Source: Acidobacteriota bacterium (GTDB taxonomy: Bacteria; Acidobacteriota; Blastocatellia; RBC074). From it: a stretch of DNA of 64,000 nucleotides. The notes below the pieces were generated by a model. It saw only the letters and a list, made by a program, of their open reading frames with translations. It was not told the origin of the DNA and did not search any database. The stretch is from NCBI GenBank assembly GCA_018268995.1, contig JAFDVL010000046.1, positions 117,715 to 181,714 of the forward strand. The letters are read 5' to 3'. Of this stretch, positions 17,859 to 45,539 are shown piece by piece (position 1 is the first letter of the stretch; each line of letters opens with the position of its first letter). A program made the position numbers and the translations under genes.

Positions 17859-17886
17859 GATAGAGTCTTTTAAAGGAACGGCAACC

Positions 17887-18375: not shown

Positions 18376-18377
18376 GA

Positions 18378-18674
18378 TTATTTTCCCGGTTGTTTATTGA
18401 TCTTGGCGGCACTTATCGCTGCTTCTAAATCCGCTTCTAACTCGCCTTGTTCATAGCGAAAAATCGAGACCTGATGTTTGCCTAGAAACTGCATGAAATC
18501 GTGAATAGACATCCCCATCATCTTTGCGCCTCTGCCAGTGGAAAGCTTGCCTTCCTGATATAAACGCAAAACTGTTTGTTCTTTGATGACTTGTTGTGCG
18601 GTCGCTAAATATTCCTGCTCGAACGGCGTGCCTACAAACTCATCGGGGATTGTTAATTCAATAGTTTTACTCAT
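18378..18674 (-). CDS. UPF0175-family putative antitoxin, the partner of the PIN protein
   Basis: Start taken at the internal ATG at 18674 (MSKTIELTIPDEF...). The segment SIHDFMQFLGKHQVSIFRYEQGELEADLE is typical of UPF0175 proteins, which are encoded upstream of DUF3368 PIN genes. Confidence 0.55.
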   Translation of the reverse strand: MSKTIELTIPDEFVGTPFEQEYLATAQQVIKEQTVLRLYQEGKLSTGRGAKMMGMSIHDFMQFLGKHQVSIFRYEQGELEADLEAAISAAKINKQPGK

Positions 18675-18716
18675 AATTGCATACTCCTCGAAAGATACTC
18701 GTGGATTATAACGCAA

Positions 18717-19952: not shown

Positions 19953-20023
19953 AGAGTTGACACAGAGAATCACAGCGGGAAACTCTGCGTGTCTCTGTGA
20001 TTCCTCTGTGCCTCTCTGTGGTG
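19947..20023. repeat. CAGAG-rich imperfect palindromic element, copy 1 of at least 2
   Basis: CACCACAGAG...cacagagaatcacag...ctctgtgattcctctgtg...CTCTGTGGTG. The terminal 10-bp inverted repeat is perfect and there are internal CACAGAG/CTCTGTG units. It lies at the 5' end of the solute-binding-protein ORF. Confidence 0.55.
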
Positions 20024-20053
20024 AAAAAAGGTTTTCGGTTTTACTCATCGCTT

Positions 20054-21151: not shown

Positions 21152-21182
21152 ATGGGGGACTCTTGGGAGATACAACTTTTGT

Positions 21183-22235
21183 TTAGATCCTCAATTGCAT
21201 TGAGCCATCAGCCGCGAAAGACGTTTTAATCGGATCGGTAATTCCGCCCACAAAGTTGCCTGCTTCATCTGCCCATTGAAAGCCTAATAAAGTAGGGTGT
21301 TCATCCGTTTCCGGCTTCAGTAACTTGCCCGCATAAATATTGGGCACGAGCAGGCGGGCGGGGTCAATAAATTCAGGCACTTGATTGAAATTCAATGGCA
21401 ACAATCGCGATTGCAAATAGTATGTGCCCGTTACGCAATCGCGGCCTGATTCACGTCGCCACCGCGTCCCATCTTTCTCCTGTGCGCAAAAGACGACGTA
21501 GCAATATTTGCCCGCGCCGCTTCTGCGCCAAAATACCTGCGGCACTTCCATCTGATAGAACTCATTCAGGCATTTGATGAGCGTCGGCTGATTCCATTGC
21601 TGAAGGTCAGGCGATGTGACATAGGCGATTACGCCACCGCCTTCTGCCTGATTCTGTCGCGCACAAATGAAGGCATAAAACCTGCCGTCTTCGCCCTGCA
21701 TCACGTATGGATCGCGCCACGCCACGCCGTCCAGATTTCCCCAATTGCCCGGGTTTGGAATGACGGGAGCGATTTTTGCCGCCTCTGTCCTTGTCCAATG
21801 CGACAAATCGTCCGAAACGGCGACGCCGATTTGTTGCGGGCGTTGCCATTCAGCAGGAGTTTGGAGGAGCGGATCTTCACGCCGCCGCGCCGTGTAAAAC
21901 ATCAAATAGCGGTCATTTGCTGCAATTACGCAGCCTGTCCAGATGGCAAGATTGTCCCAGGCATCTCCATTTGACGCGCGCAGCGCTGTGCCGTTTTCCT
22001 GCCAGCCATCGCGGGTCAAAATTGCGTGCCCGACTGAGGCAAGATTGTGACGTGCTTCAGGATTGAATTGGCAGTCCGCCTGATTTGCCTGCAAGTAAAA
22101 CGCATGCAGCTCTCCGCCTTTCCAGGCAAACCAGGAATCCCAGATATACTTATCTTTAGGTAACCAAGGCATAAGCAAAGCGAATACATCATCTGGCAAT
22201 GATGAAAGCCAAATCGGCGGCTTTGCCTTTCTCAT
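21183..22235 (-). CDS. 5-bladed beta-propeller glycoside hydrolase (GH32/GH43/GH68 superfamily), probably fructan-related
   Basis: 350 aa. The segments [16 protein letters not shown] and [17 protein letters not shown] resemble the Asp/RDP boxes of the GH-J/GH-F clans. It belongs to the same locus as the GH32 gene and the sugar ABC transporter. Confidence 0.6.
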
Positions 22236-25727: not shown

Positions 25728-25904
25728 AGGCGACAAATATAGTTTGCCGTTCAGGTCGGACGCAAACCCGGTTCGCGCTTTACGATTTTGTCTGAACAGC
25801 CAGGAACTTCTGGTTGCCTCCACTGGTGAGCCTTTCTTGTTTGTGTTGCCGACTGGTATGATGCAAATGGGAACAAGATTTGGCTGTTAATAAAATTTGC
25901 TGTT

Positions 25905-30494: not shown

Positions 30495-33400
30495 TTATCG
30501 AATTTTTACGGTGAAGCCTACGGTGCCAGTATTATTTGGAGATAAATAAGATAGGGTGCCCGCCGTAACCCGCCAGCGAATTGCCCGGACATTGCGATCA
30601 TATCCTGAATCGGCGCTGCCTCCGCCGCTGGTTGGCGTGTAGTTCCAGGTGGCTGAGCCGGGCGAGGCCGAAGTGTAATCGTTAGAATACTCAACCGTGA
30701 TCGTCAGTCCGGTCGTAGCGGGGTCAGTTGTCACAGAACTAAGTTTAAAATCTGTATTATTGGGAATTGGATCAGCGATTACTAGGGACTGCGCATTGCT
30801 GCCGCCGCTATTGGTAAATGCAATCGTATAATTAAGATCCGTTCCAGGTGGTTGTGAAGCCGTCAGGCAATTCGCTGGAACCGGGCAATTTTTGACGAGC
30901 GCTATGCTGGGGGGCAAAGCAAAGGCGACTTGAACACTGGCGGCGGAAGATTCTTTGGTCGCATTGTCAATAACAATAAAGGATATGGTTACTGTTACAG
31001 CTCCATCTGTGGGATCAATGCTAATAATGTCGGCAGGTAGTGCTCCACTCACCGCCGCAATGGTTACCCCTCCAACAGGAAAAGTACCAGAAGTGTAATT
31101 CGTGCCATTGATTGTGATGCTGGTTGCGTTGGAAGGAAACGCGGTGAACTTAAACGATGCAATCGTTCCATCAGGATCGCTGCCAGTGAAATGTGTTGAT
31201 GGAACTGTCACTAATGTTGTGCCGCCAGGGTTACTTTGACTGGCCGGATTGGTTGCAGTCGCCGTAGGCAATTGCTCAATGCCAAAATCTCTTCCTGTAA
31301 TATTGCTGGTCGAAATGTTGAAAGCTGAGGTTGCGAGAGGCGAAGTGTTCGTCCAGCCTGTTGGTACACCCGCTGTGGGAGCTGCCGAACCAATCGTTCC
31401 TGCGCTGGTTGCAAGTTGGATTGTAACGTTAGATTGGTTTCCTGCCACATTGCTAAAGGAATAAGTTCCATCGTTGTTAACGGGGGTCGTTGCTACCACA
31501 TTTCCACCAGAACTGACTAAAATTGCGTGCAATGCGCTGCCTGCATTGGTTCCCGTTTCAGCACCTGTGTTGATATTGGTGAAGGTATTATTCGCACTGT
31601 TATCCGCATCATCCCAGACTTTACCGGAAACAGTTACAACGGACGTCACGCTGACGGTTGTTGGATCAGTCCCTGCGCCCTGTGTTTGCGCAATGCTGCT
31701 GGATGGCACTGTGACGCCAGACGGTAAGCTGCCCGTCGTGCTATCCACGTTGTCCGTGTTTACGCCACTAACTGAAATTGTTGATCCCGTCGCATTTGCC
31801 TGATTACTTAAAGTGCCGGAGAAGCCGGATGTCACCGTCGTCGGAATCGCAACAGTGATAACCCCACTATTGCCGAGCGTCGCGCCAGCAGCGAGCAGAT
31901 TGCTCACTGCTCCTGACGCCGCTCCCGTGTACGAATTATTTTTGCTCGCACTTGTGCCCGCTCCTGAAACAGTGACCGTTTGCGCGCCAGTTGATGTGAT
32001 TGTGACGCCTGCGGGAAGGGGATCATTAATTTGAAAACTGGAGGCCGCGTTTGACGTTGTATTTTTATAGGAAAGTGTCCAGGTCAACGTATCGCCGGGC
32101 GTCACCGAACCGGTGCCGTCGGCATCAGTCGTGAGTTTGACGGATTTGTAGCCATTGACGACTGCATTGACAGTGGTGGTCGTCGTATTGGTTGGAACAC
32201 CTCCGCTTGGTTCATCCAGATAATTAATGACGCCACTATTATTAACCACGCTCGGCGGACTCGAAGAGTTGACCGTGACTTGATAGGTGATTGTCGCACG
32301 ATTGGCGTAGCCGACTTTAATCGCACCTGACGAAGCATTGCGGCCACTGATTGAGTACGCTGATCCAAAAGGGTAGGACGCGGCCCCTAGACTGGTTCCA
32401 TTGAGCGTTGCACTGTTGGCCACATAGGTTGTTCCGCTGGGAAGGCTATCTGTAAACGTCATGACGACAGCCGGCGCATTTCCCGTATTTTCGATTTCAA
32501 TCGTGTAGGTGAGTGTCGCACCGGGATTCACATTGCCTGTGGGGCTCACCGATTTCGTCGCAACTAAATTGGGATTAATGTTCGGTGAGTTCCCGCTGGC
32601 AAAGTCCGTGACCACGTTGCCGGAAAGCGCAGACCCCACTTGGACAGCGGACGCATCATTCAGGTCAACCCGGTAAATGGTTGTTGTGGTGCCGCTGATA
32701 GAGGAAACTAATAAGTTGCCTGAGGAATCAAACGCGACACTGACGACTGTGTTGGATGCAGTGCTGAGTGGAGTTCCACTGACGCTGATTTGTCCAATTG
32801 GATAGGCTTTGATCGGGCTGGAGTTGAAGTCCATCCGATACAGGGAATTACCGAAAATTCCCCAACAGTGGCTGTTGCCATCAAACGCAATGTCTCCGCT
32901 GGCGGTGGAACCGGAAGGCGATGTCCCTTGAAAGCTGACAGCTCCCCGCGATGTGATGGTTGAGGGAGCCGTGTTGGTGAACGAAAAAATATTGTTGTTC
33001 CCATCAATTGAATAACCCGTCGAACCATTAAAGGCCATGCGTAACGTGACGTTGCTGCTGGTTGTGCCCGGAAAGGTTCCGATAGAGCCGGATTCAGTTG
33101 TCCCGTCATAGCGGCGCAATTGATTGGGCGAGGTTGTGCGGTCTGCGTAATACAAGGTTTGTGTCGCGGCATCAAATCCCATCCCGGAACTGCCGCCCAC
33201 CGCTGAGGTGTAAATCGTGGAAGAAAGCACACCCGTTGTCGGATTAATCGTTCGGATATTTTTATTATTGGCGGTTGCCGTTCCTTCGATGACATAGATC
33301 GCTGTCGAGCTTAAAGTCGCCGCTATTGCCTGATGCTTTAAGCTCAGTGTGACGAATAGTGGATGAAGCGCGAGCAGCGCACATAAAACGCGACTAAAAA

Positions 33401-33500
33401 AGCGGCGTAAATACGAATCGGCAGGCCGTTGAAGCTGAGGTCGCGGCCTCTTCCCCTTAGTTTGTTTGTGCGGGGGCTTCCCGCCGTAAAAACGAATCAT
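30495..33500 (-). CDS. Large secreted DUF11 (conserved repeat domain, TIGR01451-like) repeat protein; S/T/G/N-rich surface protein
   Basis: 1001 aa with DUF11 signatures (GATLTYTIEIENTGNAPA...). Its C-terminal ~110 aa is near-identical to that of the upstream paralogue (NYTIAFTNSGGSNAQSLVIADPIPNNTDFKL...RAIRWRVTAG...GTVGFTVKIR). It overlaps the upstream gene by 4 bp. Confidence 0.7.
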   Translation of the reverse strand: MIRFYGGKPPHKQTKGKRPRPQLQRPADSYLRRFFSRVLCALLALHPLFVTLSLKHQAIAATLSSTAIYVIEGTATANNKNIRTINPTTGVLSSTIYTSAVGGSSGMGFDAATQTLYYADRTTSPNQLRRYDGTTESGSIGTFPGTTSSNVTLRMAFNGSTGYSIDGNNNIFSFTNTAPSTITSRGAVSFQGTSPSGSTASGDIAFDGNSHCWGIFGNSLYRMDFNSSPIKAYPIGQISVSGTPLSTASNTVVSVAFDSSGNLLVSSISGTTTTIYRVDLNDASAVQVGSALSGNVVTDFASGNSPNINPNLVATKSVSPTGNVNPGATLTYTIEIENTGNAPAVVMTFTDSLPSGTTYVANSATLNGTSLGAASYPFGSAYSISGRNASSGAIKVGYANRATITYQVTVNSSSPPSVVNNSGVINYLDEPSGGVPTNTTTTTVNAVVNGYKSVKLTTDADGTGSVTPGDTLTWTLSYKNTTSNAASSFQINDPLPAGVTITSTGAQTVTVSGAGTSASKNNSYTGAASGAVSNLLAAGATLGNSGVITVAIPTTVTSGFSGTLSNQANATGSTISVSGVNTDNVDSTTGSLPSGVTVPSSSIAQTQGAGTDPTTVSVTSVVTVSGKVWDDADNSANNTFTNINTGAETGTNAGSALHAILVSSGGNVVATTPVNNDGTYSFSNVAGNQSNVTIQLATSAGTIGSAAPTAGVPTGWTNTSPLATSAFNISTSNITGRDFGIEQLPTATATNPASQSNPGGTTLVTVPSTHFTGSDPDGTIASFKFTAFPSNATSITINGTNYTSGTFPVGGVTIAAVSGALPADIISIDPTDGAVTVTISFIVIDNATKESSAASVQVAFALPPSIALVKNCPVPANCLTASQPPGTDLNYTIAFTNSGGSNAQSLVIADPIPNNTDFKLSSVTTDPATTGLTITVEYSNDYTSASPGSATWNYTPTSGGGSADSGYDRNVRAIRWRVTAGTLSYLSPNNTGTVGFTVKIR

Positions 33501-36025
33501 CGAATTTGTACCGTGAATCCGACATTGCCTGTGTGATCAGGAACTGTCGGACTTAAATTGCCCGCTGTGACACGCCAACGAATTGCGCGCACGGTGCGAT
33601 CATAGCCAGCAGCAGCAGTGCCGCCGCCGCTGATCGGCGTATAGCTCCACGTTGCAGCGCCAGGTGCCGCAGAGTTGTAATCACTCGAATATTCCACCGT
33701 TATCGTTAAGCCTGTTGAGCCAAGAGAGGTGAAAACCGATCCCACCTTAAAATCGGTATTGGCTGGAATCGGATCAGTAAGACTCAGCCTTTGTGCGGCT
33801 AATCCGCCTGAGTTCGTGAAGACAATTGTGTATGTTAGGTCTGTACCTGGCGCTTGTTCTCCGATGGGCGAAACATTTTTTGTCAAGCTCACATTTGGCG
33901 TAGATACCAAAACTGGCGCGGCGGCAGTGATGTTAGAAGCTAAACTGGTGGAGCCATTGTTATAGTCCACCTTGGCATCATTGGTGTATGGCGTCGTAGA
34001 GACTGGCACCCCGCTGCCTGCGGTCGCCTGAAACTGAATCGTGAAGGTTGCCCCAGCCGCTAAAGTTGGCGGCGAAGGGATTGTGGCGAAATCCCATTTG
34101 ACCTCTTGCCGATTATCTGACGTGTAAGGCAACTGCGTTGGGGGCGCAGTGACAGTGGGTGTCACGCTGGTAATATTGGTGAACACACTAGAGCCAGTAA
34201 CAAAGTTAAAGCGTGTGTTGGCATTAAGTGCGCCGCCTGCTGTGGGCAGAAAATCATAAACGACCAGACTACTAGCCGCAGCGTTCCCGGTGTTTGTCAC
34301 AGTGATTGTGTAAGTTACCGTGCCACCAACGGCAATGGCTGATGGAGTAACGCTCTTGGTGATTTGCAGGTTTGCTGTTGAAGAAACCACAGAGGCCGCA
34401 TTAGACGTTACTCCGGTTGGCACTTGCGAACTGGTCAAAAGAGCCTGATTGATGACCGTATCGCCGTTCCCTGCATTGGTCTGTACATCGAATTCAACTG
34501 CACCGCCACTGCCCGCGCCAAGGCTGGCAATCATCTGAAAGGTAAACGTTCCGCCTGCTGTTGGGCTGGCAGGCGAAATGGGCAAGATGTTTGCCCCACT
34601 AATGACGCTGAGGTTACTCACCGAGCCGGCAGCCGTCTGCGAGGGCAGAGTGTCAGTCAACAGCACATTCGTTTGCGTTGTGACCCCGCTGTTCAGATAG
34701 GTGATGCGGTAACGTATCTTGGCATTGGCCGGAATATTCGCGCCGTTGGAGGCCACGCCGTTCACTTGCACGATTTGTTTGAGGACGTAGAGATTAGAGT
34801 TGTTGTTGGCTACGCTCGGTACGTGATAACGCCAACTGTTATCGTTCCCCGCTTTGCCCGCTGCTTCGGCGGAATCGCCTCCATAGACCTCTGAATTCAG
34901 CACCAGTCCATTCACGGGCGGATTAACCGTCAGGCGCAGACGCAGCTTAACGTATTTGGTTTGCCCCACGACCAATTGTCCGACCGCCCAACGGACGGCA
35001 TTCGTATTGGAAGGAAGCGGACTTGCCTCCGACAGACTCCAACCGAAACTTGTATAACTTCCTGCGATGTAGGTTGAACTGTCAGTTGGGCCGCCCGCAC
35101 TTTCAGGGTATGAACGCGTTGTCGAAACCGCCGGGCCGTTGGGCGTCCCAATCCGGGACCCAAAGTAGGAAATGCGCCGCCAAGGGCCGATATTTCCGGT
35201 ATTGTCTAACGTGTAACCGGAATCCGGGCCAGCCACGGCAGAGCCTGCATTGAAGGGAGTTGCGCCTGTGCCCGACGAAAGAGAGGCCGCCGCAGATTTT
35301 GGATTGGCCGTCGAAGAAATAGCTGCGGATGTGGAGCCGAAGGCATTAGCCTGATCCGCATCCCACAGGTTATGCGTTGTGGCACCGGCTTGCCCAATGA
35401 TGGGATTAAGCTGGGATTCGCCAGTAGGACTGATGTTGTAGCCGTTCGTCCCTTGTCGTGCTTTGCCATCAGCATCGGGCGATGTATAAACCGCTGTCCG
35501 CGCATCTGTCGAATAGAATATCCCGGTATCCGCGTAAATCTCTGCCAAACTGCCATTACATCGTCCCAGCGGCTGGCCTGCTGTGGCACAACGCGCATCA
35601 TAGTTTCCACTGAAAGGCCCGGTAAAGGTTCGCTGCCCACGTGGTCCCCAACCATTGCTGATCGGGCCAGGTAAATCAGGGGCAGTGGACGAATAGCCAC
35701 CGCTGCCATTGGGTTGCACGATTTCAGCTCCGACTACCTCTGTGCCAGCCGGGATATAGGCCGTGACATAACCGCCTGCGCCGATAGTGGCGTTATTCGC
35801 AACCGGAGAAAATTGAATGATATATCCCACCACATCACCTGCGCGCAGTCCCGGCGACCCACCGCTCGCGCGTGTTTGCAGCAGTTGCACAGTTTCCGGT
35901 GCAAAAAATACGGTGGTTTGTACTTGCGCCACGTTGTGCGCCGAGACCCAGAAAACGACTCCAAATGAAAGGCCGATTAGCAGGGTACTTACCACCACTA
36001 ATCGAAGTCGCCATCGTTTGTGCAT
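33497..36025 (-). CDS. Large secreted DUF11 repeat protein, paralogue of 30495-33500
   Basis: Start taken at the ATG at 36025 (MHKRWRLRLVVVSTLLIGLSFGVVFWVSA, a signal peptide or anchor). DUF11 cores are present (TVTYTITVTNTGNAAASSLVVYDFLP). It shares the conserved C-terminal domain (YTIVFTNSGGLAAQRLSLTDPIPANTDFKV...RAIRWRVTAGNL...GNVGFTVQIR). Confidence 0.7.
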   Translation of the reverse strand: MHKRWRLRLVVVSTLLIGLSFGVVFWVSAHNVAQVQTTVFFAPETVQLLQTRASGGSPGLRAGDVVGYIIQFSPVANNATIGAGGYVTAYIPAGTEVVGAEIVQPNGSGGYSSTAPDLPGPISNGWGPRGQRTFTGPFSGNYDARCATAGQPLGRCNGSLAEIYADTGIFYSTDARTAVYTSPDADGKARQGTNGYNISPTGESQLNPIIGQAGATTHNLWDADQANAFGSTSAAISSTANPKSAAASLSSGTGATPFNAGSAVAGPDSGYTLDNTGNIGPWRRISYFGSRIGTPNGPAVSTTRSYPESAGGPTDSSTYIAGSYTSFGWSLSEASPLPSNTNAVRWAVGQLVVGQTKYVKLRLRLTVNPPVNGLVLNSEVYGGDSAEAAGKAGNDNSWRYHVPSVANNNSNLYVLKQIVQVNGVASNGANIPANAKIRYRITYLNSGVTTQTNVLLTDTLPSQTAAGSVSNLSVISGANILPISPASPTAGGTFTFQMIASLGAGSGGAVEFDVQTNAGNGDTVINQALLTSSQVPTGVTSNAASVVSSTANLQITKSVTPSAIAVGGTVTYTITVTNTGNAAASSLVVYDFLPTAGGALNANTRFNFVTGSSVFTNITSVTPTVTAPPTQLPYTSDNRQEVKWDFATIPSPPTLAAGATFTIQFQATAGSGVPVSTTPYTNDAKVDYNNGSTSLASNITAAAPVLVSTPNVSLTKNVSPIGEQAPGTDLTYTIVFTNSGGLAAQRLSLTDPIPANTDFKVGSVFTSLGSTGLTITVEYSSDYNSAAPGAATWSYTPISGGGTAAAGYDRTVRAIRWRVTAGNLSPTVPDHTGNVGFTVQIR

Positions 36026-36142
36026 AACACGAGGTTTACCGTTTTTGCCTGGATGCTTGACGTTAATTGAAGATGGTAAAAAGTCTCTTCTGGCTCGTTG
36101 CATACACCTAAAAATGGAGGCTCATCTTGGTTCAACTCAAAT

Positions 36143-39100
36143 CTACTCTTGCTGATTATTTGACGTCGTTTTTGCTGGTGAGGCCTTGATTTCATTTGGC
36201 AAATTCGACTCGTGGCCTACTAAACCATCGGGTGCTGTGCCGAATAAATTGAACATATTCGAGAGCTTTGACGACACCACGAAGTAAAAGCCTTTGCGCG
36301 TATTTACGTTACTGTTGAGGTTGCTAAAGCCTCCGAAGTATCCCGGACTTTCCTTCATCTGCGTGAAGTTATAGCCACCCGCCAGACGCAAATCTGACAA
36401 TGCCCAGAAGCCAAGTTCTGTTCCTATCGAAGTGCGACGTGATCCTGTACCTGAAAGCCACAACGCGCGAATTTCGCCTGCCAGATCAAAGTATTGCGCG
36501 AACCGCCATTCGGCGCGTCCCTGCATCAATGAGGTTATTGTGCCGACGACAGGCAATCCATCGCGTCCCGTGCGGTTGAATTTCAGGGCGTAACGTCCGT
36601 ACAGTTCCACTCGGCGCAGCGGTTGATACAGTCCATCAATTGCCAGCACGGTGTCGCGATCCAGCAAAGGCTGAAAACCCTGCCGCGCGCCCTGCTCAAT
36701 CGAACGGAAGTTGTAGCTCAGCAACAACGCGGTTTTATCAGATTCCAATGGACGCCAGGCGAGTGCCAATTGCCCGTTCATCATCACGTTGCTGGCCTGA
36801 TTTTGAAACGCTGTGCGCGAATATTGCACCCGCCCCAGCGACGTCCAGCTCTCGCTTAATTTGCCTGCGGCTCCGACCGTGAAGATGTTGCCGAAACCGT
36901 ATAAATCTCGCAGTTCGTAACGCGCTGCCGAACGGAAACTATCCGTCGGGTTATAGTTGAATCCGAACATCGCGTTATTGAAGCTTTTGCCATTGCCGCG
37001 CAGGTGCAATCCGCGTTCATAGCCCGCGTCCAGCGAAAGCACTTTGTTGATCGGGAAGCGATTCAGCAAACCAATCACCGCAAAACTGTCTGTGCCATTG
37101 ATGCCGTTGTTGATCTGATACCGCCCGCTCATCGTCGTGTATTTATTGAGCGGCGATTCGACGCCGACAGCGGTTTCACGACGTGAAGCGGTTTCAGCAA
37201 ACCCAAACGAACTGACATCGCTGATGGCTGTGATTGCTTGAGAAGCAAGGCGTTGCGTGAAGAAAATCTTGGCCAGCGAATTGACCTGATAGCTGGCCGC
37301 GACCGTCGTTTGATCTGGATAAGTCGGGTCAGAGTCACCCAGATTTTGTTCGCGTTTGACAGCAACGCTGATTTTGTCATTCGGACGATATTCCGCGCCC
37401 GCCGTAATCAAATTTGATGTGACCTCGCGGCCAGCAAATTGTGAAGCCGTGGCGGTTGGCGGCGTAGTTGCCGTGCCTGTTGCATCCGCGTTGGCGTTGG
37501 CATTATTGGCCAGCGCGCTGCCCGCTTCGTCCTTGAAGGTGCGATAATCGTAGCCAAGGCTGAACCGTAATTTATCACCGTAAGATTGAATCCACCCGAT
37601 GGAACCTGTGCGGCGGCTGTTGTTGAAATTGGCCGTCCGGTTGCGTTCATCGGTGAAGCCAACGCGCATTTGCGCCGATCCGATGGGTTTCAAATCGAGC
37701 GCGACTGAACCGCGTTGCGAACCTGGCGTAATTGTGGTGCCAAAGGGATTGAAGAAGCTGCGATCTGACCGGGCAAAGCTGGCTTGTAACTGTGCTTCTC
37801 TGAAACTGAGCGGTTGGCGATATTCGGCGCGATAGGCGTGTCCGTTGTGCTCACCGTTGCTGCTGTTCAGGCTGCCGGCCAAACCGTCGAAACCAAAATA
37901 GCTACCACTGGAAGCGACGCGCCCATTGCTCATGCCCCATTCGAGTTGCAATGAACCGCTCTTGCCAATTTTCTTTTCCACGTCAACGCCGCCCAGATAG
38001 AACGATCCGAACGTTTCCTGTCGCTGGTCAATGAACGACGTGCCAATGCGCAATCCTGCGCTGTTGAAGTTCTTCGATCCGCGCCCTGTGTACACCGCAG
38101 AATTCATGCCGACTGCGCGGTATTCGTATGTCGCGACGATTTGCACCAGATTCAGCGCGTAATCAAACGTCGAAATCGGGCGCATGAAGTAAATCGAACC
38201 CAGGTACGGATCAAGGTTGTAATCCACCGAACGCACCAGAACCTCGCGCTGCAAAATGATGTCGGGGTTACGCCGATCACGAACTTCGCGGACGATGGTT
38301 TCGGTGCCCTGCAAAATGTCCGTGTGCGAAAGTCGAATTAACCCCAATGTGCTGCCGGGGAACACATCGCGTGAAAACGATGTGTCAGGACGCGCACCGG
38401 AAAGCGTGAGGGAACTGCCGCCTGCGGTTTCCAAATGGACTTTGACGCCCGTCAGGCGGCGGTTGTAGCCCGTCAATTGCGGGCCTTGATCGGCGAACAC
38501 AGGGATCGAATTGAAGTTATTCAGAATCGAATTGCCGATGCCTGCGCTGGCCAGATTTTCAGCCAGATTCGTCACTGCCGTCGGCGTGTAGCTGTTGTTG
38601 ATGTATTCCTGCTGGCTCGCATCGAAATCGCCGAACATCGCATATGAACGACCACGATCAATGCGCGCATAGAGCTTGGAATTGGATTGCGCATCTTCAA
38701 ATCGCGTCGAGGAATCACCGAAGATGGGATAGACGCGATCCAACGGATCAAGGAAAAATGTGCGGTCACGTCCTGCTGTGCGCGTCAACGGACGAAAGCT
38801 GTTGTAGGCCAGTGTCAATTGCGAAGTCATCGGCAACGGCCCACGGAAATAGAATTCTGTGTGATGCCGATAATTCTTGTCGCTGCCACTTGCTGCAATA
38901 TCCGGCGCAGCTTTGCCGAAAGATGCTTCGGCTAATCCAACCAGAATTTGCGGGCGCTGTTCGGGCGTGATGCGAATCAGCCCCTTGGCCTGCAAATCGC
39001 CACTGAATGCGCGGATTTCGGCATTGCCGGGTTGGCCTTCGCCGATCAATTCAATCGTTGCTTCTCCGTTATCGAGCGAGAGAATTTGCTGGCGATAAGC

Positions 39101-42100
39101 TGCGCTGACCTGTTCCGCCGAAAAGCCATTGACCGGTTCCGCACCCGCGCCAATTAAGGGCGAACGTAATTTCTCGGCTTCTTCGCGACTGATGTTGCGC
39201 GCATTTGCAATCGTTGCGATGCAATCATTGGCCTCGCCTTTTTTGCTGGCTGTGCGTTGGCAAACCGGAGCTGAAGCGGAGCTTGGCTGGTTGGTCGGTC
39301 GTGATTCAGAGGGGGTTGCCGATGGCTTTGGATTATCAGCTTCAGCGTTGCTGATTTGATTGGCCGACCGCAGCAACCGCCCGGCAGAAATTTGCAATCC
39401 GACTTGTCCGCTCATCGCCGGATTACCCCACGCGTCATACGCTCTGACACGAACCATCGTTGCGTCGCGTCCGCCTGATTGAATTTCTTTTTTGTCAGTG
39501 ACGATTTCCAATCGTGAAGCCGGGCCGCGTCCCATCACGGTTAAGTTGACGGCTTCACCCGGCGCACCATCGGGCGAGAGCGCGATGACTTTCAATTGAT
39601 TCGGGCCGGGCTTGAGATTGATGCCGACAAAGACGAAGGTCGCAACTTTGTTTTTGCGATCAATTTCTTTGACGCCGATGTTTGTTTCAGGAATGCGTTG
39701 GCCGCCGATTTCCAGCGCGACGCTGTAATCCATATGGACGCGCGCTTCAACACGCAACGCGGTTTCCATCACCACTTCGTTTGCTTCAGGCGACAGCACT
39801 TCGATTTTGCCCGGCTCGACAGGCTTGATGTTTTCCGTTGATGTTTCGTTGTAAGTGCCAGGTGCCTTGTGGCCGTTCTTGCCAACGTTCATGGCCGCGA
39901 CGCCCGCGCGTGTTTTCGGTTCGCTGCGTTTATTCAGAATGCGGTCAAACGCGCCGCCGAGGACAGAATCATCTTTAGTTGTTGTTCCTTTGCCTGTGCG
40001 CACTGATTCTGCGCCTGCCTCTTCGCCTCTCGCTTCATTGGCTGCTTTGTTGGTTGCCCAGATTGAGGCGAGCGATCCAGTAGCTGATGTCGCAGGTGTC
40101 GCACTGGAAATGCTGGTTTCGACTGCGCCGACATCGGTCACAGTTTCGGTAATGGGATTGATGTTTTTTTCCAGCGCGAAATTGACACGATTCAATCCGC
40201 CTCCGCCCAGCGGCGTGCGTACCAGGCGCGTCCAACTGCGCCCGGATTTTTGTCGGTTGTCCATCAGACTGTAGCCGCGTGGCACGGTGATTGGATCGAG
40301 CGAAACCACGGCTGCGCCTTCTTCAACAGAAGGGAAGTTATACAGCCCGTGCGAATCGGTGATGACCGACATACCGTTGTTCAGGTAAACGCGAGCGCCC
40401 GTCACCGCCCGATCACAGGCTTCAAATAAGCCGTTGCCGTTCGTGTCTTCAAATACGCGCCCGATGATGATTTGCCGCATCGAAAACGCGCCCAATCCAA
40501 CTAACACAGGCGCTTTGGCGGGTTGCGTGCGAATCGGATCGCCGTTTGGATATTTGGCTTCAGCATAGGCCAGATTGACTTGCTCGCCCTCTTTGGCGTT
40601 CGCCCCAACGCGCAGGCGATAAGTAACTGTGACGCGTGCGCCCGCAGGCAAATCGCCGACTTTGAAGGTCAGACGATTGTTGGCAATGGTTGGCTCAACG
40701 CTCAGAATCGCGCCGTCAATTTGAATGCGCGCGGTGCCAGGCACATACAAAAACGATTGCGGCACTGTGTCTACCAGCACAACATCCGTGAACTTCGTTG
40801 CCGTTGCGTTGTGTGCTTCCAGCCGATACGAAACTGTGTCGCCGATTTCTGTGCGTTGCTTGTCGGCAACTTTGGTTAGTTGCAGCGTGGCAGTCTCGAA
40901 CATCGGAATGTTCATGACCAGCGCAGAGATGTCCGTCAGCGTCACGCCCGAAGTGGTGAGTGCAAAGCTGCCTGCCTGCGCAATTGGTTGCCCGTCCAAA
41001 CTGCGCACATCTACTTTGAAAAGCCCTCCGGCTGTGGGTTCGATCTTAATTTCGAGCACACGTTCCCGATAACCCTGTGCTGCGACGTGAATGTAATACG
41101 TGACAGGAGCGCCGGGAGCGCCAACCTGATTGGGCGCAAAGGCGAAAGCGAAATGTCCCTGCCCATCAGACAGGAATGGATTGTCGTTTTTATCGTTTGG
41201 CGAAAACCCTCCCGTCGGCATTTGTAAAGGCGCTTTGCCTTGCGGATCGGTTGAGACCAGCACCGTGGCCCCGGAAATCAAAATGCTGCCGTTGCTGTAG
41301 CCCGCGTAAACCGTGCCTTCAGGATTGATGACAACGACGGTTCGCGCGGTTCTGATGGCTGTGCCGATGTTGTCACCCGCGACCTGTGCGGTGTTGATGA
41401 CGCCAACGCCGGGTTTGACGTTGCTGTTCAGCCGAGCCTGAAATGCGACGCTGACAATCTGATTGACCGCGACGCTGGCCAATTTGACTTCCAGGCGGCG
41501 ACTGTTGATGACGTGTGCAATGTCGCCATCAATCGCGTCGGTCAGGGAGACATCACCGATCTTCATTGTGCCGGGCATGTAATCCAGCTCCGGCGGCAAA
41601 TCATCCGTCAGCAAAACGTTAATTGCAGGGGTCGTACCACTGTTCCGAAAATTGATGCTGTAGTTAAGAATGGCACCTGCGGTCGAAGTGATGTGATCTT
41701 TGTTCTCGACGTATTTGACGGGCGGCAGCGCGGGATTGGTGGGGTCGGTAACTTTCGTCCCTTCTCCGCCTTTATTGATGTTTGTGCCCGTGTCAGTTTT
41801 GTTGTTATCAACTTTTGACTTGGCGGTCAGGCCAATGGTGATGACTTCATCCAGCTTGATTGCACCTGTGTCAACGATGACAAGAATGCCCAGACACGCG
41901 CCGGGTTGCATCGTTGGCGTCAGCGTTGAATTCAATGAAACCTGTGTATCGCCTGCGGTGAGTGTGCCGCTGCCGTCAATATCCCAGTAAAGCGCGGAGA
42001 TGGTCGAAGGCGGTGTGATGGTTGTTTGTGTCAGCGAATATTGATCGGCCACGTTGCCCGTATTGCAAACGCGAAACAGGCGAGTGACCTGTTCGTTGGG

Positions 42101-42340
42101 CACCATGATCCCGGTGGGTTGCGTGTCATCCGGCGTAACGCTGAGGCTGACGACGGCAATCACCGTCAGGCTGACGGGATTGGAAGAAACCTGATGATCA
42201 TTGCCGCCAGGATCGCTGTAGGTTGCGTGTGCCTGATTGGTAATGACTACGCCTCCTGTTCCGCTGCTTTGTGCCCAGGCTGAGGACGCACAAAACAGCA
42301 GGACGGCGAATAGAATTAGCCATGAATTATGCTTGGTCAT
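36143..42340 (-). CDS. Giant (2065 aa) outer-membrane protein: signal peptide, N-terminal DUF11 and SdrD-B/CnaB-like domains, and a C-terminal ~900-aa predicted beta-barrel
   Basis: N-terminus MTKHNSWLILFAVLLFCASSAWAQ, then ITNQAHATYSDPGG...SLTVIAVVSLSVTPDD (a DUF11 start motif) and GRVFEDTNGNGLFEACD (an SdrD B-like motif). The C-terminal half has alternating hydrophobic amphipathic strands rich in Y, R and G (RVGFTDERNRTANF, RFSLGYDYRTF, MSGRYQINNGINGTDSFAVIGLL, LAIDGLYQPLRRVELYGRYALKF, IGTELGFWALSDLRLAGGYNF), typical of outer-membrane beta-barrels. Confidence 0.75.
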   Translation of the reverse strand: MTKHNSWLILFAVLLFCASSAWAQSSGTGGVVITNQAHATYSDPGGNDHQVSSNPVSLTVIAVVSLSVTPDDTQPTGIMVPNEQVTRLFRVCNTGNVADQYSLTQTTITPPSTISALYWDIDGSGTLTAGDTQVSLNSTLTPTMQPGACLGILVIVDTGAIKLDEVITIGLTAKSKVDNNKTDTGTNINKGGEGTKVTDPTNPALPPVKYVENKDHITSTAGAILNYSINFRNSGTTPAINVLLTDDLPPELDYMPGTMKIGDVSLTDAIDGDIAHVINSRRLEVKLASVAVNQIVSVAFQARLNSNVKPGVGVINTAQVAGDNIGTAIRTARTVVVINPEGTVYAGYSNGSILISGATVLVSTDPQGKAPLQMPTGGFSPNDKNDNPFLSDGQGHFAFAFAPNQVGAPGAPVTYYIHVAAQGYRERVLEIKIEPTAGGLFKVDVRSLDGQPIAQAGSFALTTSGVTLTDISALVMNIPMFETATLQLTKVADKQRTEIGDTVSYRLEAHNATATKFTDVVLVDTVPQSFLYVPGTARIQIDGAILSVEPTIANNRLTFKVGDLPAGARVTVTYRLRVGANAKEGEQVNLAYAEAKYPNGDPIRTQPAKAPVLVGLGAFSMRQIIIGRVFEDTNGNGLFEACDRAVTGARVYLNNGMSVITDSHGLYNFPSVEEGAAVVSLDPITVPRGYSLMDNRQKSGRSWTRLVRTPLGGGGLNRVNFALEKNINPITETVTDVGAVETSISSATPATSATGSLASIWATNKAANEARGEEAGAESVRTGKGTTTKDDSVLGGAFDRILNKRSEPKTRAGVAAMNVGKNGHKAPGTYNETSTENIKPVEPGKIEVLSPEANEVVMETALRVEARVHMDYSVALEIGGQRIPETNIGVKEIDRKNKVATFVFVGINLKPGPNQLKVIALSPDGAPGEAVNLTVMGRGPASRLEIVTDKKEIQSGGRDATMVRVRAYDAWGNPAMSGQVGLQISAGRLLRSANQISNAEADNPKPSATPSESRPTNQPSSASAPVCQRTASKKGEANDCIATIANARNISREEAEKLRSPLIGAGAEPVNGFSAEQVSAAYRQQILSLDNGEATIELIGEGQPGNAEIRAFSGDLQAKGLIRITPEQRPQILVGLAEASFGKAAPDIAASGSDKNYRHHTEFYFRGPLPMTSQLTLAYNSFRPLTRTAGRDRTFFLDPLDRVYPIFGDSSTRFEDAQSNSKLYARIDRGRSYAMFGDFDASQQEYINNSYTPTAVTNLAENLASAGIGNSILNNFNSIPVFADQGPQLTGYNRRLTGVKVHLETAGGSSLTLSGARPDTSFSRDVFPGSTLGLIRLSHTDILQGTETIVREVRDRRNPDIILQREVLVRSVDYNLDPYLGSIYFMRPISTFDYALNLVQIVATYEYRAVGMNSAVYTGRGSKNFNSAGLRIGTSFIDQRQETFGSFYLGGVDVEKKIGKSGSLQLEWGMSNGRVASSGSYFGFDGLAGSLNSSNGEHNGHAYRAEYRQPLSFREAQLQASFARSDRSFFNPFGTTITPGSQRGSVALDLKPIGSAQMRVGFTDERNRTANFNNSRRTGSIGWIQSYGDKLRFSLGYDYRTFKDEAGSALANNANANADATGTATTPPTATASQFAGREVTSNLITAGAEYRPNDKISVAVKREQNLGDSDPTYPDQTTVAASYQVNSLAKIFFTQRLASQAITAISDVSSFGFAETASRRETAVGVESPLNKYTTMSGRYQINNGINGTDSFAVIGLLNRFPINKVLSLDAGYERGLHLRGNGKSFNNAMFGFNYNPTDSFRSAARYELRDLYGFGNIFTVGAAGKLSESWTSLGRVQYSRTAFQNQASNVMMNGQLALAWRPLESDKTALLLSYNFRSIEQGARQGFQPLLDRDTVLAIDGLYQPLRRVELYGRYALKFNRTGRDGLPVVGTITSLMQGRAEWRFAQYFDLAGEIRALWLSGTGSRRTSIGTELGFWALSDLRLAGGYNFTQMKESPGYFGGFSNLNSNVNTRKGFYFVVSSKLSNMFNLFGTAPDGLVGHESNLPNEIKASPAKTTSNNQQE

Positions 42341-42437: not shown

Positions 42438-43958
42438 TTATTGTTTGATTTTGCGCTTGAAGCGAAACGTGCCGGATTGCCCACCAGCTAATGTACCAAC
42501 AGTGTCCACGTATTTGCTGTTGGCCACGCCACCCGTGCTATTGCTGATGGTGATGGTGCCGCCGCGCGAATCAGATTCAGTGCTGGCGACGCGATCCGTC
42601 GTGGTGGACCAGTTGTTGGGCGAAACATCGCCATCTTCTGTGATGACGACCAGCAACGCGTCCAAATCCACATTGCCCGTTCCCGTCGGAGCATTGGCGA
42701 TATTGTCGTAGGCAATGACATATTCAATATCTGCTCCTGGCACTGCATCCGTCGCCCCACCCACGCCTGTCGCATTTGTCACAGTCGCGGTCTTTACCAA
42801 TCGCAGATAGCCCGTGTAAATGCGGTCAATCGTATTATTGGTTTGTGTGGGATCAGAAACAGAGACGGCTTGGATGATAGTTTCGTAGGCCGTTAATGCG
42901 GTTGCTCCGCCCGGCAAAGTGATACGTACTTTGTAGTTGGAGTTCGCACCCGACGCGACCGATGCTGTGGTGACTTCCGGTGTACCACTGGGGGAGCCGT
43001 TCGTGATGACCTCAGTCCAAACCGTGCCGCCATCAATACTGATTTCGACTTTGGAACCTGCGGGCGCACCGCTGGTGGCGACTTTCAGCTTGAACGTGTC
43101 TGCTCCGTTTCCGCCGTTTTTGAAGGTGTTGTCGAATATGACGGGCGTGTTCGTTGTCGCGGCGGTGACGGCTTTATTTGTGTAGTCCGTGTTGGTGCTT
43201 GGGCCTGGGCCGACGGCATCAGGCTGGCCACTGGGGCCATTCGTGACGGTTGCCACGTTGCTCACGGTCATTGTGATGTCACCTTTGGCTTCACGTTCGC
43301 CATTCACGGCGGTGATGCTGCCTGGATGTTTAGTATGAACTTCGTGCGTCGAATTGTTGGCGCTTTGGTTGTCATACGGGGAACTGCCTGTGGTGTCACC
43401 TAACTCGACCTTAATCGTTTGACCCGCAGATGCCGCTCCGCTGACGGTGACTTTCACGACGACCGCAACAGCGCCGCTTTGTGCCAGCGAATGCGTGGCG
43501 GCAGCTCCGTTGCCCTGAATGTCAACGTCCGTGCCAGCATCATAATTTCCATTGCCGTTCACATCCACGAACGCCTGCGAAACCGTGCCCGGCCCGGTGA
43601 CCTGAATGCTTGCGCCGCTGGCCAAAAACTCTACATTGTCGGTGAAGTTGCCAAGGTTCGTGACCGTGAAGGTATACGTTGCCGTCGAACCCGGCGCAAC
43701 AGTTGTCGCAGGGGTGCTTCCGTCAGGCGTGATTTGCAATCCTGCCACATAAGAAACGGTAGTTGTCACTTCATTTGAAGTGGCGCTGTATTTGGTCGGA
43801 TTGGATGGATCATCCGTATAGGAGGCGGATGCCTGGTTGCGGATTACGGTTCCGCCTGCGGTGGCCTGCGCATAAGCACTGCCAGTCAATGCAACGAGGG
43901 CAACTGTGCCCAACAGCACCTTGCCCCAGAGGTCATGTTTCCTCGTCATCTTCATCAT
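42438..43958 (-). CDS. Secreted DUF11 repeat protein
   Basis: Start taken at the ATG at 43958 or 43955, preceded by AGGAG (MMKMTRKHDLWGKVLLGTVALVALTGSAYAQA, a signal peptide). The sequence TVIRNQASASYTDDPSNPTKYSATSNEVTTTVSYVAGLQITPDG has the same N-terminal motif as the giant protein. Further DUF11-like units follow (TATYTFTVTNLGNFTDNVEF). Confidence 0.7.
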   Translation of the reverse strand: MMKMTRKHDLWGKVLLGTVALVALTGSAYAQATAGGTVIRNQASASYTDDPSNPTKYSATSNEVTTTVSYVAGLQITPDGSTPATTVAPGSTATYTFTVTNLGNFTDNVEFLASGASIQVTGPGTVSQAFVDVNGNGNYDAGTDVDIQGNGAAATHSLAQSGAVAVVVKVTVSGAASAGQTIKVELGDTTGSSPYDNQSANNSTHEVHTKHPGSITAVNGEREAKGDITMTVSNVATVTNGPSGQPDAVGPGPSTNTDYTNKAVTAATTNTPVIFDNTFKNGGNGADTFKLKVATSGAPAGSKVEISIDGGTVWTEVITNGSPSGTPEVTTASVASGANSNYKVRITLPGGATALTAYETIIQAVSVSDPTQTNNTIDRIYTGYLRLVKTATVTNATGVGGATDAVPGADIEYVIAYDNIANAPTGTGNVDLDALLVVITEDGDVSPNNWSTTTDRVASTESDSRGGTITISNSTGGVANSKYVDTVGTLAGGQSGTFRFKRKIKQ

Positions 43959-44076: not shown

Positions 44077-44574
44077 TTATTTCACGCGGACTTTATACAT
44101 CGCGGAAACTTGTTTTCCTTCGTTTAGCGGATCATTCCATTCGTAGCGAATATGGGTGTACATCGTCGCTGGCGCAGGCACTTGACGATAAGAACCGTCG
44201 GGCTGCTTTTGTTCAATCGTGGGTTTGGTCGAATACGTCTTTCCCTGATCAATGCTGAAGAAAATCGTTGCATTCCCGCCTGCTTTTGCACTGCCACCCA
44301 CATACGCTGTTCCCTGCGGGATTTCGCCGACAGTTTTGTAATTATGCGCCGGAGCATTTCCGGCATTGTGTGACAGGATCGTCCAGTTCAGGACTTCGCC
44401 TGGATTGAGCAGGCCAGCTTTATCAATCTCAATCGCCTGATTTTCGCGCTCGACCGTACCTGTCAGCACGACTTTGACTTCAGGCCGGACGGCCCACATG
44501 GCGAAAACGCTGCTGGTGATAACCACGGCGGCCAGAGAGCTAAGAATCAGGGCGCGATGTTTGTTAAGTTTCAT
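44077..44574 (-). CDS. Small signal-anchored single-domain DUF11-like protein, first gene of the cluster
   Basis: Start taken at the ATG at 44574 (MKLNKHRALILSSLAAVVITSSVFAMWA). The segment GEVLNWTILSHNAGNAPAHNYKTVGEIPQGTAYVGGS has the DUF11 pattern (..Y.I.V.N.G.A.A.N....D.LP.G...V..S). Confidence 0.55.
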   Translation of the reverse strand: MKLNKHRALILSSLAAVVITSSVFAMWAVRPEVKVVLTGTVERENQAIEIDKAGLLNPGEVLNWTILSHNAGNAPAHNYKTVGEIPQGTAYVGGSAKAGGNATIFFSIDQGKTYSTKPTIEQKQPDGSYRQVPAPATMYTHIRYEWNDPLNEGKQVSAMYKVRVK

Positions 44575-44882
44575 ACGGGTTTTTCCTTTGGTTGAAATGC
44601 AGGGGCAGGAAGTCACTTGCCGGCTTGGACTGAGGCCAGCATGGTCACAAGGACAATTTCTGTGCCAGTTTTGTCATTGCTTTGCAATCATTCGATAACT
44701 TGCAAGATGACTGAATTTAGACGCGCTTTCACAACAATGATGAAACTGACAGATTGACAAAAACTGACAAGCTTGACTGACAAATTTGGGCAAATTGTGG
44801 CGAGCATCAATCAGGTTGGAGTGTACGGCAGCCGCGAATCCATCTATAATCAGCGCTTATATTGTTCCCCCTGAGAATGCTT

Positions 44883-45539
44883 ATGCCAAAAGCGAATGGG
44901 ATGAAAGTGCTGATTTCATTATTACTTTTGCTGACAACGACAATTGCCGCATCAGCCTCAGAATTAGATCAACTAATTACTGGATTACAGGCAAAATATC
45001 AGCGGCTCAATACTTTGACGGCGGATTTTACGCAAATCTACAACGCGCCGGGCGAACGCACGCGCCGCGAAAGTGGCCAAATGCAACTCAAAAAGCCGGG
45101 CAAAATGCGTTGGGATTATGCCTCGCCAGAATCCAAACTGTATGTTTCGGATGGCAAAACCATCTATGAATACATCCCGGCTGAACGGAGCGCGACACGC
45201 ACCAGCGCCAAGGAAACTGATGATTGGCGTGCGCCTTTTATGTTTTTGCTGGGACGCGGCAATTTGCGCCGTGATTTTGCGCGCATCGAATTTGCCAATG
45301 AATCCCCGGTGCGGGCCGGAAATCGCGTGCTGCGCATGATTCCGAAACGAAGCTCAGACATTCGAGAATTGCTGATTGAAGTTGAGCCAAAATCTTTGGG
45401 GCTGGCGCGCTTGTCACTGATCAAACAGGGTAATGCCAGAATTGATTTTCTGCTGAATAATATGCAGGAAAATGCTGTCATTGCCGATACAGCGTTTGTC
45501 TTCAAACCGCCCGCAGGCGTTAGTGTGCGGCAGCAATAA
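44883..45539 (+). CDS. lolA: Outer-membrane lipoprotein carrier protein LolA-like
   Basis: Signal peptide MPKANGMKVLISLLLLLTTTIAASA, then LTADFTQIYNAPGERTRRESGQMQLKKPGKMRWDYASPESKLYVSDGKTIYEY, a LolA-family signature. The start is ambiguous (44862, 44883 or 44901). Confidence 0.7.
   Translation: MPKANGMKVLISLLLLLTTTIAASASELDQLITGLQAKYQRLNTLTADFTQIYNAPGERTRRESGQMQLKKPGKMRWDYASPESKLYVSDGKTIYEYIPAERSATRTSAKETDDWRAPFMFLLGRGNLRRDFARIEFANESPVRAGNRVLRMIPKRSSDIRELLIEVEPKSLGLARLSLIKQGNARIDFLLNNMQENAVIADTAFVFKPPAGVSVRQQ

Follow-up and report, generated by a model that had tools for sequence, protein, structure and literature searches.

Introduction

How is a protein built that joins adhesin-type domains to a C-terminal half made up of amphipathic strands, and what would such a protein do in the bacterial envelope? 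This question is raised by an open reading frame (ORF) on the minus strand, at 36143..42340, of a 64,000-nucleotide stretch of contig JAFDVL010000046.1 (positions 117,715 to 181,714) from an Acidobacteriota bacterium, assembly GCA_018268995.1; the whole of this stretch is referred to below as the window. The ORF has 2065 codons, and its product is identical to the public entry MBS1809900.1, 'DUF11 domain-containing protein [Acidobacteria bacterium]'. DUF11 is now called CLIPPER in Pfam; it is a stalk domain with isopeptide bonds, found in fibrillar adhesins outside the cell (PMC12617251). An earlier reading of the sequence, hereafter the original prediction, described the last ~900 amino acids (aa) as an unusually large outer-membrane beta-barrel fused to an adhesin-like passenger, in an arrangement like that of type V secretion.

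The C-terminal part of the 2065-aa protein has a barrel-type fold and represents a new family. Its gene belongs to a conserved operon, has undergone natural fission in a relative, and in other relatives carries peptidoglycan-binding inserts on both flanks of the barrel. We consider it an even chance that the barrel is a dedicated outer-membrane platform, whether pore or anchor, for the CLIPPER proteins encoded in the same module.

The C-terminal region is predicted to be one very large barrel

AlphaFold2 (AF2) was applied to residues 1098-2065 with a 62-sequence alignment (fragment numbers below are the protein residue minus 1097). The fragment model had a mean predicted local distance difference test (pLDDT) value of 71.8 and a predicted TM-score (pTM) of 0.68, with pLDDT values of 80-94 over most strands. 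It consists mainly of a long beta-hairpin meander, in which 32 strands of 7-17 residues lie between fragment residues 301 and 926 and are joined in nearly all cases by turns of 2-8 residues. Ahead of the meander, four further strands were predicted at fragment residues 60-83 and 126-143, followed by a small 8-strand domain at 198-290. All loops of at least 10 residues come after odd-numbered strands, and this parity is the same with or without the four early strands. This would be expected if the long loops lie on one face, and it is how the loops of an outer-membrane protein are arranged when its two termini are both periplasmic.

Foldseek comparison of the model to the PDB gave 46 matches at E<=1e-3, with a probability of ~1.0. 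Human ApoB100 occupied ranks 1 and 44 of the top 50, and the rest were membrane beta-barrels, nearly all of them bacterial outer-membrane proteins. The matches include SlpA, BtuB, FepA, Cir, MtrB, LptD, FimD, SprA and porins, as well as mitochondrial TOM40 and VDAC; the top TM-score, 0.27, was to the 30-strand SlpA of Deinococcus. Hydrophobicity averaged over the alignment alternates along the AF2 strands, and at 23% of positions, compared to an expected 10%, the alternation surpassed the 90th percentile of shuffled profiles. In a mean-field direct coupling analysis (DCA; 250 sequences, effective number of sequences (Neff) 166, 806 columns, reduced alphabet), the pairing of strands 1 and 2 had a coevolution z of 10.

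The protein thus combines the general attributes of an outer-membrane beta-barrel: a Sec signal peptide, an amphipathic antiparallel meander, and a fold matching solved outer-membrane proteins. The model points to residues ~1154-2032 as one very large barrel of at least 32 strands, and probably 36, an exact count that we infer. The AF2 meander, the barrels found by Foldseek and the amphipathic alternation all bear out the original prediction of an unusually large outer-membrane barrel in the last ~900 residues, where the three peptides that it quoted (RFSLGYDYRTF, MSGRYQINNGINGTDSFAVIGLL and LAIDGLYQPLRRVELYGRYALKF) were also located. Structure prediction, which it had proposed as a check, returned a barrel-type fold instead of a non-barrel one, and a barrel of at least 32 strands in AF2 is, as had been claimed, far beyond the 12 strands of an autotransporter. 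The proposed extent, 36143-39050, was correct in that it holds the barrel, but 38882-39050 encodes an Ig-like domain, and the barrel itself begins near residue 1154 (window 38881), a little inside the proposed limit.

The most conserved element of the family lies outside the strands, directly behind the first hairpin, and has the motif LDPLDR.YP.FGDSS...SKLYAR.D...SYAMFGDF. The segment holding it, residues 1154-1240, is possibly formed by barrel strands 1-4 joined by a conserved loop on the periplasmic side. The motif residues themselves, 1195-1240 (window ~38621-38758), had a pLDDT of ~30 in AF2 and matched no known family; they may constitute a functional periplasmic or lumenal loop. By sequence comparison, the insertion that follows (residues 1241-1292) is specific to the close lineage of the 2065-aa protein. 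The small beta domain at ~1293-1392, which keeps the motif GSETV.LEVRDRRNP...DYNLD..TG.I.F in the family alignment, precedes the meander in the model and is a plug-like candidate that would lie inside or below the pore. At the other end, the final meander strand, GFYFVVS, is followed by a conserved KLSNMFNLFG.

The barrel represents a new family

The barrel region (the last ~910 residues) had no match in Pfam (E<=10), in NCBIfam or among PDB sequences (phmmer and profile searches), where only the upstream Ig domain was matched. When the plug-like domain and the conserved motif were queried singly, neither matched Pfam at E<=10. Two further checks had been proposed in the original prediction. 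Homology to TonB receptors, ushers or LptD does not explain the barrel (Pfam, PDB profile search), and the search for a plug domain gave no match to Plug (PF07715) at E<=10. The 2065-aa protein also had no match to the OmpL-like porin family BBP2 (PF07642), and relatives scored 24.7-25.9 bits over ~110-150 residues, just under its gathering threshold of 26.2. Judged by these searches, the barrel is a new, undescribed family.

To count the family, a barrel-only profile (A2) was scored against 1.84 billion cluster representatives, which gave 3531 clusters (50% identity) at E<1e-3, of which 1761 had E<1e-30. Apart from many short fragments and a few proteins with an extension (e.g., P0231), the best 150 representatives of the 3531 clusters are 1000-3650-aa proteins with the barrel at or near the C-terminal end. 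Members were found beyond Acidobacteriota, for example in Candidatus Wallbacteria. Literature searches on DUF11/TIGR01451 proteins with barrel, usher, pili or Acidobacteria returned no account of either the barrel or the operon. Giant barrels were predicted earlier, among them 34-strand and 40-or-more-strand candidates (10.1101/2021.02.17.431615), and the literature consulted gives the barrels of SprA (36 strands) and SlpA (30) as the largest solved.

In relatives, adhesin-stalk domains are separable from the barrel and wall-binding domains flank it

Matches to PF01345 (CLIPPER/DUF11; 58.9 bits, cut-off 24.6) and to TIGR01451 (71.7 bits, cut-off 24) were confined to the N-terminal half of the 2065-aa protein. 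Following the signal peptide, this half begins with an N-module comprising a first domain in common with the protein of the upstream gene B, CLIPPER/DUF11-type domains at residues 212-321 and 486-596, and an SdrD_B-like domain at 628-695, the match to which was sub-threshold in Pfam and NCBIfam. A low-complexity linker separates the N-module from an Ig-like spacer, which showed AF2 strands at fragment residues 8-44, a weak Pfam match to Glyco_hydro2_C5 and, in the PDB profile search, matches to a GH2 C-terminal Ig domain and to invasin 1cwv (E 0.007-0.02).

The CLIPPER/SdrD module is missing from the barrel protein in many relatives. At least 22 of the best 150 representatives are only ~1020-1190 aa long, with the barrel match beginning ~260-350 residues in, and 16 of 22 short forms start with a signal-peptide-like stretch by a simple hydrophobicity test. 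In locus L005, a 711-aa CLIPPER/SdrD_B protein is encoded first and a 1134-aa protein next; each has a separate signal peptide, and the longer one carries Ig domains and the barrel. Because of this fission and the signal-peptide-bearing short forms of ~1100 aa, the minimal unit is the Ig spacer plus the barrel; in L005 the CLIPPER module is, by gene structure, a detachable partner of the barrel protein.

Five homologs (P0005, P0031, P0107, P0064 and P0053) that appeared to be free-standing barrels were rejected as frameshift-split or truncated gene calls: their ORFs overlap in L001 and their N-termini begin inside Ig domains. On two long-read ENA contigs (L001, 6918-12673, and L002, 9016-14539), the orthologous giant gene lies in overlapping ORFs of different frames. 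Going by these overlaps, the broken giant genes are assembly frameshifts and a source of spurious 'barrel-only' database proteins.

In relatives, domains that bind the cell wall (SLH or OmpA-C) occur next to the barrel; those on its N-terminal side lie at the site of the linker (residues 721-850), where the L005 gene is also split. Three SLH domains are present in P0187 and in P0206, between SdrD_B and the barrel-adjacent Big-like domain; P0215 has an OmpA domain at the same position, between its SdrD_B domain and the barrel; and P0231 has an OmpA domain C-terminal to the barrel. Among the representatives, SLH was found in 2 of 271 proteins examined and OmpA in 3 of 19 scanned. Since these wall-binding domains flank the barrel, both of its termini and the junction region are placed in the periplasm. 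The description of the N-terminal half as an adhesin-like passenger therefore held in part. The half does consist of adhesin-stalk domains (CLIPPER/DUF11, SdrD_B, Big_1/invasin-like), but the term passenger is unproven and is partly contradicted by the SLH/OmpA domains at the junction and by the dispensability of the module.

The barrel gene belongs to a conserved operon of CLIPPER proteins

Two genes precede the barrel gene and two CLIPPER genes follow it (Table 1). The gene A protein has a signal peptide and one CLIPPER-like sandwich; its AF2 model (pLDDT 88.6) matched in Foldseek the CLIPPER crystal structure 9ifr (target TM-score (TMt) 0.53, root-mean-square deviation (rmsd) 3.7), TTHA1873 and the pilin RrgB. 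The gene B protein shares homology with the barrel protein over its first ~190 residues; BLASTP gave 31% identity across 200 aa (E=1e-18) with the N-terminal end of the barrel protein. Downstream, D1 and D2 have a common C-terminal domain, 139 aa of D1 being 64% identical to D2, and this domain is weakly homologous to the gene A protein. A 720-aa winged-helix/propeller protein is encoded just behind the operon, as are its homologs in 6 close relative loci; by its domains it is the likely regulator of the operon and may be membrane-bound. Pfam and NCBIfam scans of the six operon products found no other secretion component.

The gene context was surveyed in 80 species-representative loci. All loci retrieved come from metagenome-assembled genomes, the closest ones all from Blastocatellia or Pyrinomonadaceae. 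The N-module and the barrel were in one ORF in all 66 assessable loci, a gene A homolog lay upstream of the barrel gene in 59 of 59, and a homolog of the D proteins (868-aa or 1001-aa) was directly downstream in 55 of 61. The conserved order is thus small CLIPPER protein, mid-size protein, barrel protein and large CLIPPER proteins, and the same order was seen in the distant loci L005, L087, L088 and L089 and on the P0187 contig. Sigma-54, two-component or c-di-GMP regulators often adjoin the loci of relatives. In L006 (Ca. Wallbacteria, GCA_016190005.1) and L088 (GCA_945787445.1), distant family members have as neighbours other giant proteins of surface type (PKD, dockerin, Laminin_G_3) along with GGDEF/EAL regulators, a setting that hints at adhesion or biofilm islands.

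A proposed outer-membrane platform for CLIPPER proteins

If the barrel is a platform, it would sit in the outer membrane with both ends in the periplasm and with the Ig-like spacer domains hanging below. It would be the membrane component of a conserved four-to-five-gene module whose other products are all Sec-exported proteins of the CLIPPER (isopeptide-stalk) type, and these would reach the cell surface, and stay there, through or on a barrel that could act as both a wide, possibly plugged pore and an anchor. Its clients would include the barrel protein's own N-module, which in at least one lineage is a separate polypeptide. We favor this explanation because the module encodes 3-4 further Sec-exported CLIPPER proteins, because no other secretion component was found among the scanned products, and because of the wide pore implied by at least 32 strands, the inserted plug-like domain, and the existence of fused and split forms. 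More specifically, the barrel could be the translocon of an unrecognised secretion and assembly pathway, a gated barrel of ~36 strands, equal in size to the largest known (SprA), that exports the folded, isopeptide-stabilised CLIPPER proteins of neighbouring genes, anchors them at the surface, and recognises its substrates by their common N- or C-terminal domains. We regard this narrower proposal as tentative and on the unlikely side; if true, the pathway would be present in Acidobacteriota and Candidatus Wallbacteria as well as in further unassigned metagenomic lineages, some with SLH-bearing members.

Several points weigh against a platform. We infer the surface placement, export or anchoring of the partner proteins, and the module encodes no chaperone, ATPase or other energy source. 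Because relatives carry SLH or OmpA domains on the N-terminal side of the barrel, the stretch of the N-terminal half nearest to the barrel, at least, would be periplasmic, and the whole N-module could be. Regarding the barrel itself, TM-scores to every solved barrel were low (<=0.27, Foldseek). The DCA, underpowered at this Neff, gave z values of -1.5 to 10 for adjacent hairpins, most of them below 4, and no closure or long-range signal; barrel closure, strand number and plug position are predictions read from AF2 secondary structure only.

The periplasmic location of the junction is also what would be expected of an SlpA/OmpM-type envelope tether or a giant porin, in which the N-terminal Ig chain hangs into the periplasm and reaches the peptidoglycan, while the CLIPPER proteins form a periplasmic or inner-leaflet-associated lattice and no surface fibre. 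SlpA, with its 30-strand barrel, is the top structural match by TM-score. The SLH x3 (P0187, P0206) or OmpA (P0215) domains between N-module and barrel, and the OmpA domain after the barrel in P0231, agree with a tether, and the succession from barrel through Big spacer and peptidoglycan-binding domain to CLIPPER module suits a chain that descends from the outer membrane. Chlamydial OmcB, a DUF11 protein, is a precedent for the lattice, having been proposed to form one in the periplasm. However, the 2065-aa protein itself has no peptidoglycan-binding domain in Pfam or NCBIfam, wall-binding domains were found in a minority of the representatives examined (SLH in 2/271, OmpA in 3/19), CLIPPER domains are typically extracellular (PMC12617251), and a tether leaves unexplained both the 3-4 further conserved secreted CLIPPER proteins and the N-module that occurs as a separate protein. 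Although we consider a tether or porin unlikely, it is the main contender. We are more doubtful of autotransporter-like self-export, whereby the CLIPPER/SdrD 'passenger' would be threaded out through its own C-terminal barrel and held by a segment in the pore. The domain order (signal peptide, adhesin-like domains, C-terminal barrel) would fit, folded Ig domains could pass through a pore of such width, types Va and Vb offer a parallel to the fused and split forms, and a threaded topology is conceivable with the linker in the pore and a peptidoglycan-binding domain below. Against this, the barrel has at least 32 strands in the model instead of 12-16, the minimal conserved unit has no passenger, and the peptidoglycan-binding domains of relatives lie between 'passenger' and barrel, so that the chain would have to run down to the wall and back up. 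There is also no type V secretion barrel, POTRA or intimin signature, and the type V secretion affiliation of the original prediction was, as family membership, not upheld: no autotransporter, Omp85/POTRA or intimin barrel signature was present.

Two other explanations concern the fold. The meander could comprise two or more smaller tandem barrels, or a partly open beta-sheet, given that multi-barrel chains were predicted in other families (10.1101/2021.02.17.431615), that AF2 places long loops at fragment residues 378-402, 508-540 and 603-623, and that closure as a single barrel is putative, with low TM-scores to solved barrels. We consider this improbable. For a chain of 968 residues of which ~170 are disordered, a pTM of 0.68 suits one coherent fold, the hairpin meander is unbroken with short turns, and AF2 is reported to reproduce even a 36-strand topology that was new to it (10.1101/2022.10.09.511469). 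A divergent TonB-dependent receptor or Oar-like barrel (CarboxypepD_reg, plug and 22 strands) is a type very common in Acidobacteriota, and it would account for the SdrD_B/CarboxypepD_reg-like domain upstream of the barrel and for the Foldseek matches to BtuB, FepA and Cir; an Oar-like gene is even present in the same window (10330-13989). We nevertheless reject this identity as practically untenable since it is contradicted at the sequence level. Even at E<=10 there was no match to Plug, TonB_dep_Rec or PF25183, whereas the ORF at 10330-13989, which serves as a positive control within the window, matched PF25183 at 4e-150; the PDB profile search returned no TonB-dependent receptor, the query TM-score (TMq) to BtuB was 0.15, and the strand number is too high.

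Should a platform be correct, the fixed partnership of the barrel with secreted CLIPPER proteins would be a candidate answer to how Gram-negative bacteria that lack sortases or known adhesin transporters display isopeptide-stalk proteins at the surface. This question is of most importance in Acidobacteriota, a soil phylum that is abundant and has been little studied. Single-chain barrels of very large size are rare, and a compact 32-36-strand family with thousands of members and no annotation would widen the range of known outer-membrane architectures. Giant barrels with N-terminal Ig or tether regions are already known, whereas the operon partnership is undescribed and would carry more weight if export were shown.

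Features of the operon and of the surrounding window

Table 1. Positions in the window of the parts of the 2065-aa protein and of the accompanying genes
Feature	Position	Strand	Basis
Signal peptide, residues 1-23 (...SSAWA/QS)	42272..42340	-	Translation; aligns with signal peptide of upstream gene B protein
N-module, residues 24-720	40181..42271	-	Pfam, NCBIfam, BLASTP vs gene B protein
Low-complexity linker, residues 721-850	39791..40180	-	Translation; comparison with relatives
Ig-like spacer domains (Big_1 / invasin-D3 / GH2-C5-like) and low-complexity insert, residues 851-1153	38882..39790	-	Pfam, PDB profile search, AF2
First four predicted strands and top-conserved motif (FLDPLDRVYPIFGDSS...SNSKLYARIDRGRSYAMFGDF), residues 1154-1240	38621..38881	-	Invariant columns in alignments A1 and A2; AF2 strands 60-83, 126-143
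Insertion, predicted disordered or helical, residues 1241-1292	38465..38620	-	Missing from family consensus; pLDDT 32-37
Small 8-strand beta domain ahead of main meander, residues ~1293-1392	38165..38464	-	AF2 strands at fragment 198-288/290, pLDDT 68-88
Main beta-meander, 32 predicted transmembrane strands, residues ~1393-2032	36245..38164	-	AF2 DSSP, Foldseek, amphipathic pattern
Variable disordered C-terminal tail and stop codon	36143..36244	-	pLDDT <50; relative P0231 has OmpA domain at same end
Operon gene A, 165-aa secreted protein, single CLIPPER-like domain	44077..44574	-	AF2, Foldseek
Operon gene B, ~505-aa secreted protein (538 aa for the protein compared by BLASTP)	42438..43955	-	BLASTP vs 2065-aa protein
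Operon gene D1, 868-aa CLIPPER protein	33497..36103	-	Pfam, NCBIfam
Operon gene D2, 1001-aa CLIPPER protein	30495..33500	-	Pfam, NCBIfam
CadC/ToxR-like winged-helix domain and TolB-type (TolB/PD40) beta-propeller, 720 aa	27858..30020	-	Pfam, NCBIfam

Immediately upstream of the operon, a divergent gene at 44862-45539 (+) encodes a LolA-family outer-membrane lipoprotein carrier. The minus-strand ORF at 10330-13989, mentioned above as a control, encodes another large outer-membrane barrel protein, 1219 aa long, with CarboxypepD_reg and PF25183 (OMP_b-brl_4, E=4e-150), which we take to be of the Oar-like TonB-receptor type and which is unrelated to the studied barrel by hidden Markov model comparison. 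A fructan-utilisation-like cluster at 16323-22235 (-) comprises a GH32 enzyme, a sugar ABC substrate-binding protein and a second GH32/GH43-like protein, and is followed at 22249-25823 by genes for a large TPR protein and for an FG-GAP/ASPIC (UnbV) protein. At 57450-60608 (-), in the part of the window with the lowest GC content (0.45-0.46), there is a 1052-aa protein whose N6_Mtase, Eco57I and MmeI-type methyltransferase domains make it look like a type IIG/IIL restriction-modification enzyme.

Comparison with known systems

In overall plan, the 2065-aa protein is most readily compared to SlpA of D. radiodurans (PDB 8ae1, 7zgx; SLH, stalk, 30 strands), in that both have a very large C-terminal single-chain barrel after a long N-terminal region, and SLH domains N-terminal to the barrel also occur in some distant relatives of the 2065-aa protein. 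There is, however, no sequence similarity. The 2065-aa protein has no SLH domain or coiled coil, the SLH domains characteristic of SlpA/OmpM tethers being found only in the distant relatives P0187 and P0206, and it differs further in its N-terminal CLIPPER/SdrD/Big Ig-type domains, in a strand number that is probably higher, and in its multi-gene CLIPPER operon.

The likeness to type V secretion lies in the joining of an adhesin-like region and a barrel in one chain, in the fused and split versions, and in the Big_1/invasin-like Ig domain beside the barrel. The barrel is about three times larger, though, and peptidoglycan-binding domains lie between 'passenger' and barrel in relatives. With respect to type Va, there was no PF03797 or TIGR01414 match at E<=10, and AF2 gave at least 32 strands, not 12; for type Vb (TpsB/Omp85), POTRA, ShlB and Bac_surface_Ag were not matched; and for type Ve, the 2065-aa protein had no intimin barrel match and, unlike intimin, carries its barrel on the opposite side of the Big domains, C-terminal to the Big_1-like domain.

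SprA, the translocon of type IX secretion and, with 36 strands, the largest solved barrel, has a strand number comparable to the one predicted here and was a Foldseek match (8gl6_A, TMq 0.21). The common C-terminal Ig-like domain of D1 and D2, the candidate cargo, recalls the C-terminal domains of type IX substrates. SprA, on the other hand, has more than 2,600 residues, compared to a compact barrel of ~640 aa without sequence similarity to it, and no gld or por genes were present among the operon products scanned.

Ushers (PapC, FimD) share with the barrel protein a large barrel, an operon of several secreted Ig-fold subunits, and periplasmic beta-sandwich domains, and FimD was a Foldseek match of the barrel (TMq 0.23). 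In ushers a plug beta-sandwich is inserted within the barrel; the small beta-sandwich of the barrel described here is likewise inserted after the first few strands. Differences are found in the number of strands (24 in ushers, 32-36 here) and in the subunits, which here are complete CLIPPER domains; no sign of donor-strand exchange was seen, although none was sought. In Pfam and NCBIfam, neither PF00577 nor a PapD-like chaperone was found in any of the six operon products, the barrel protein included. The logic of the proposed platform would resemble that of an usher or of a two-partner transporter while being homologous to neither. The N-module and the partner proteins are of the same domain class as the CLIPPER adhesin B9T28_05395 of Acinetobacter, which has an OmpA-like anchoring domain and in whose description barrel and outer membrane are nowhere mentioned (PMC12617251); in the module described here, the anchor would instead be a giant integral barrel.

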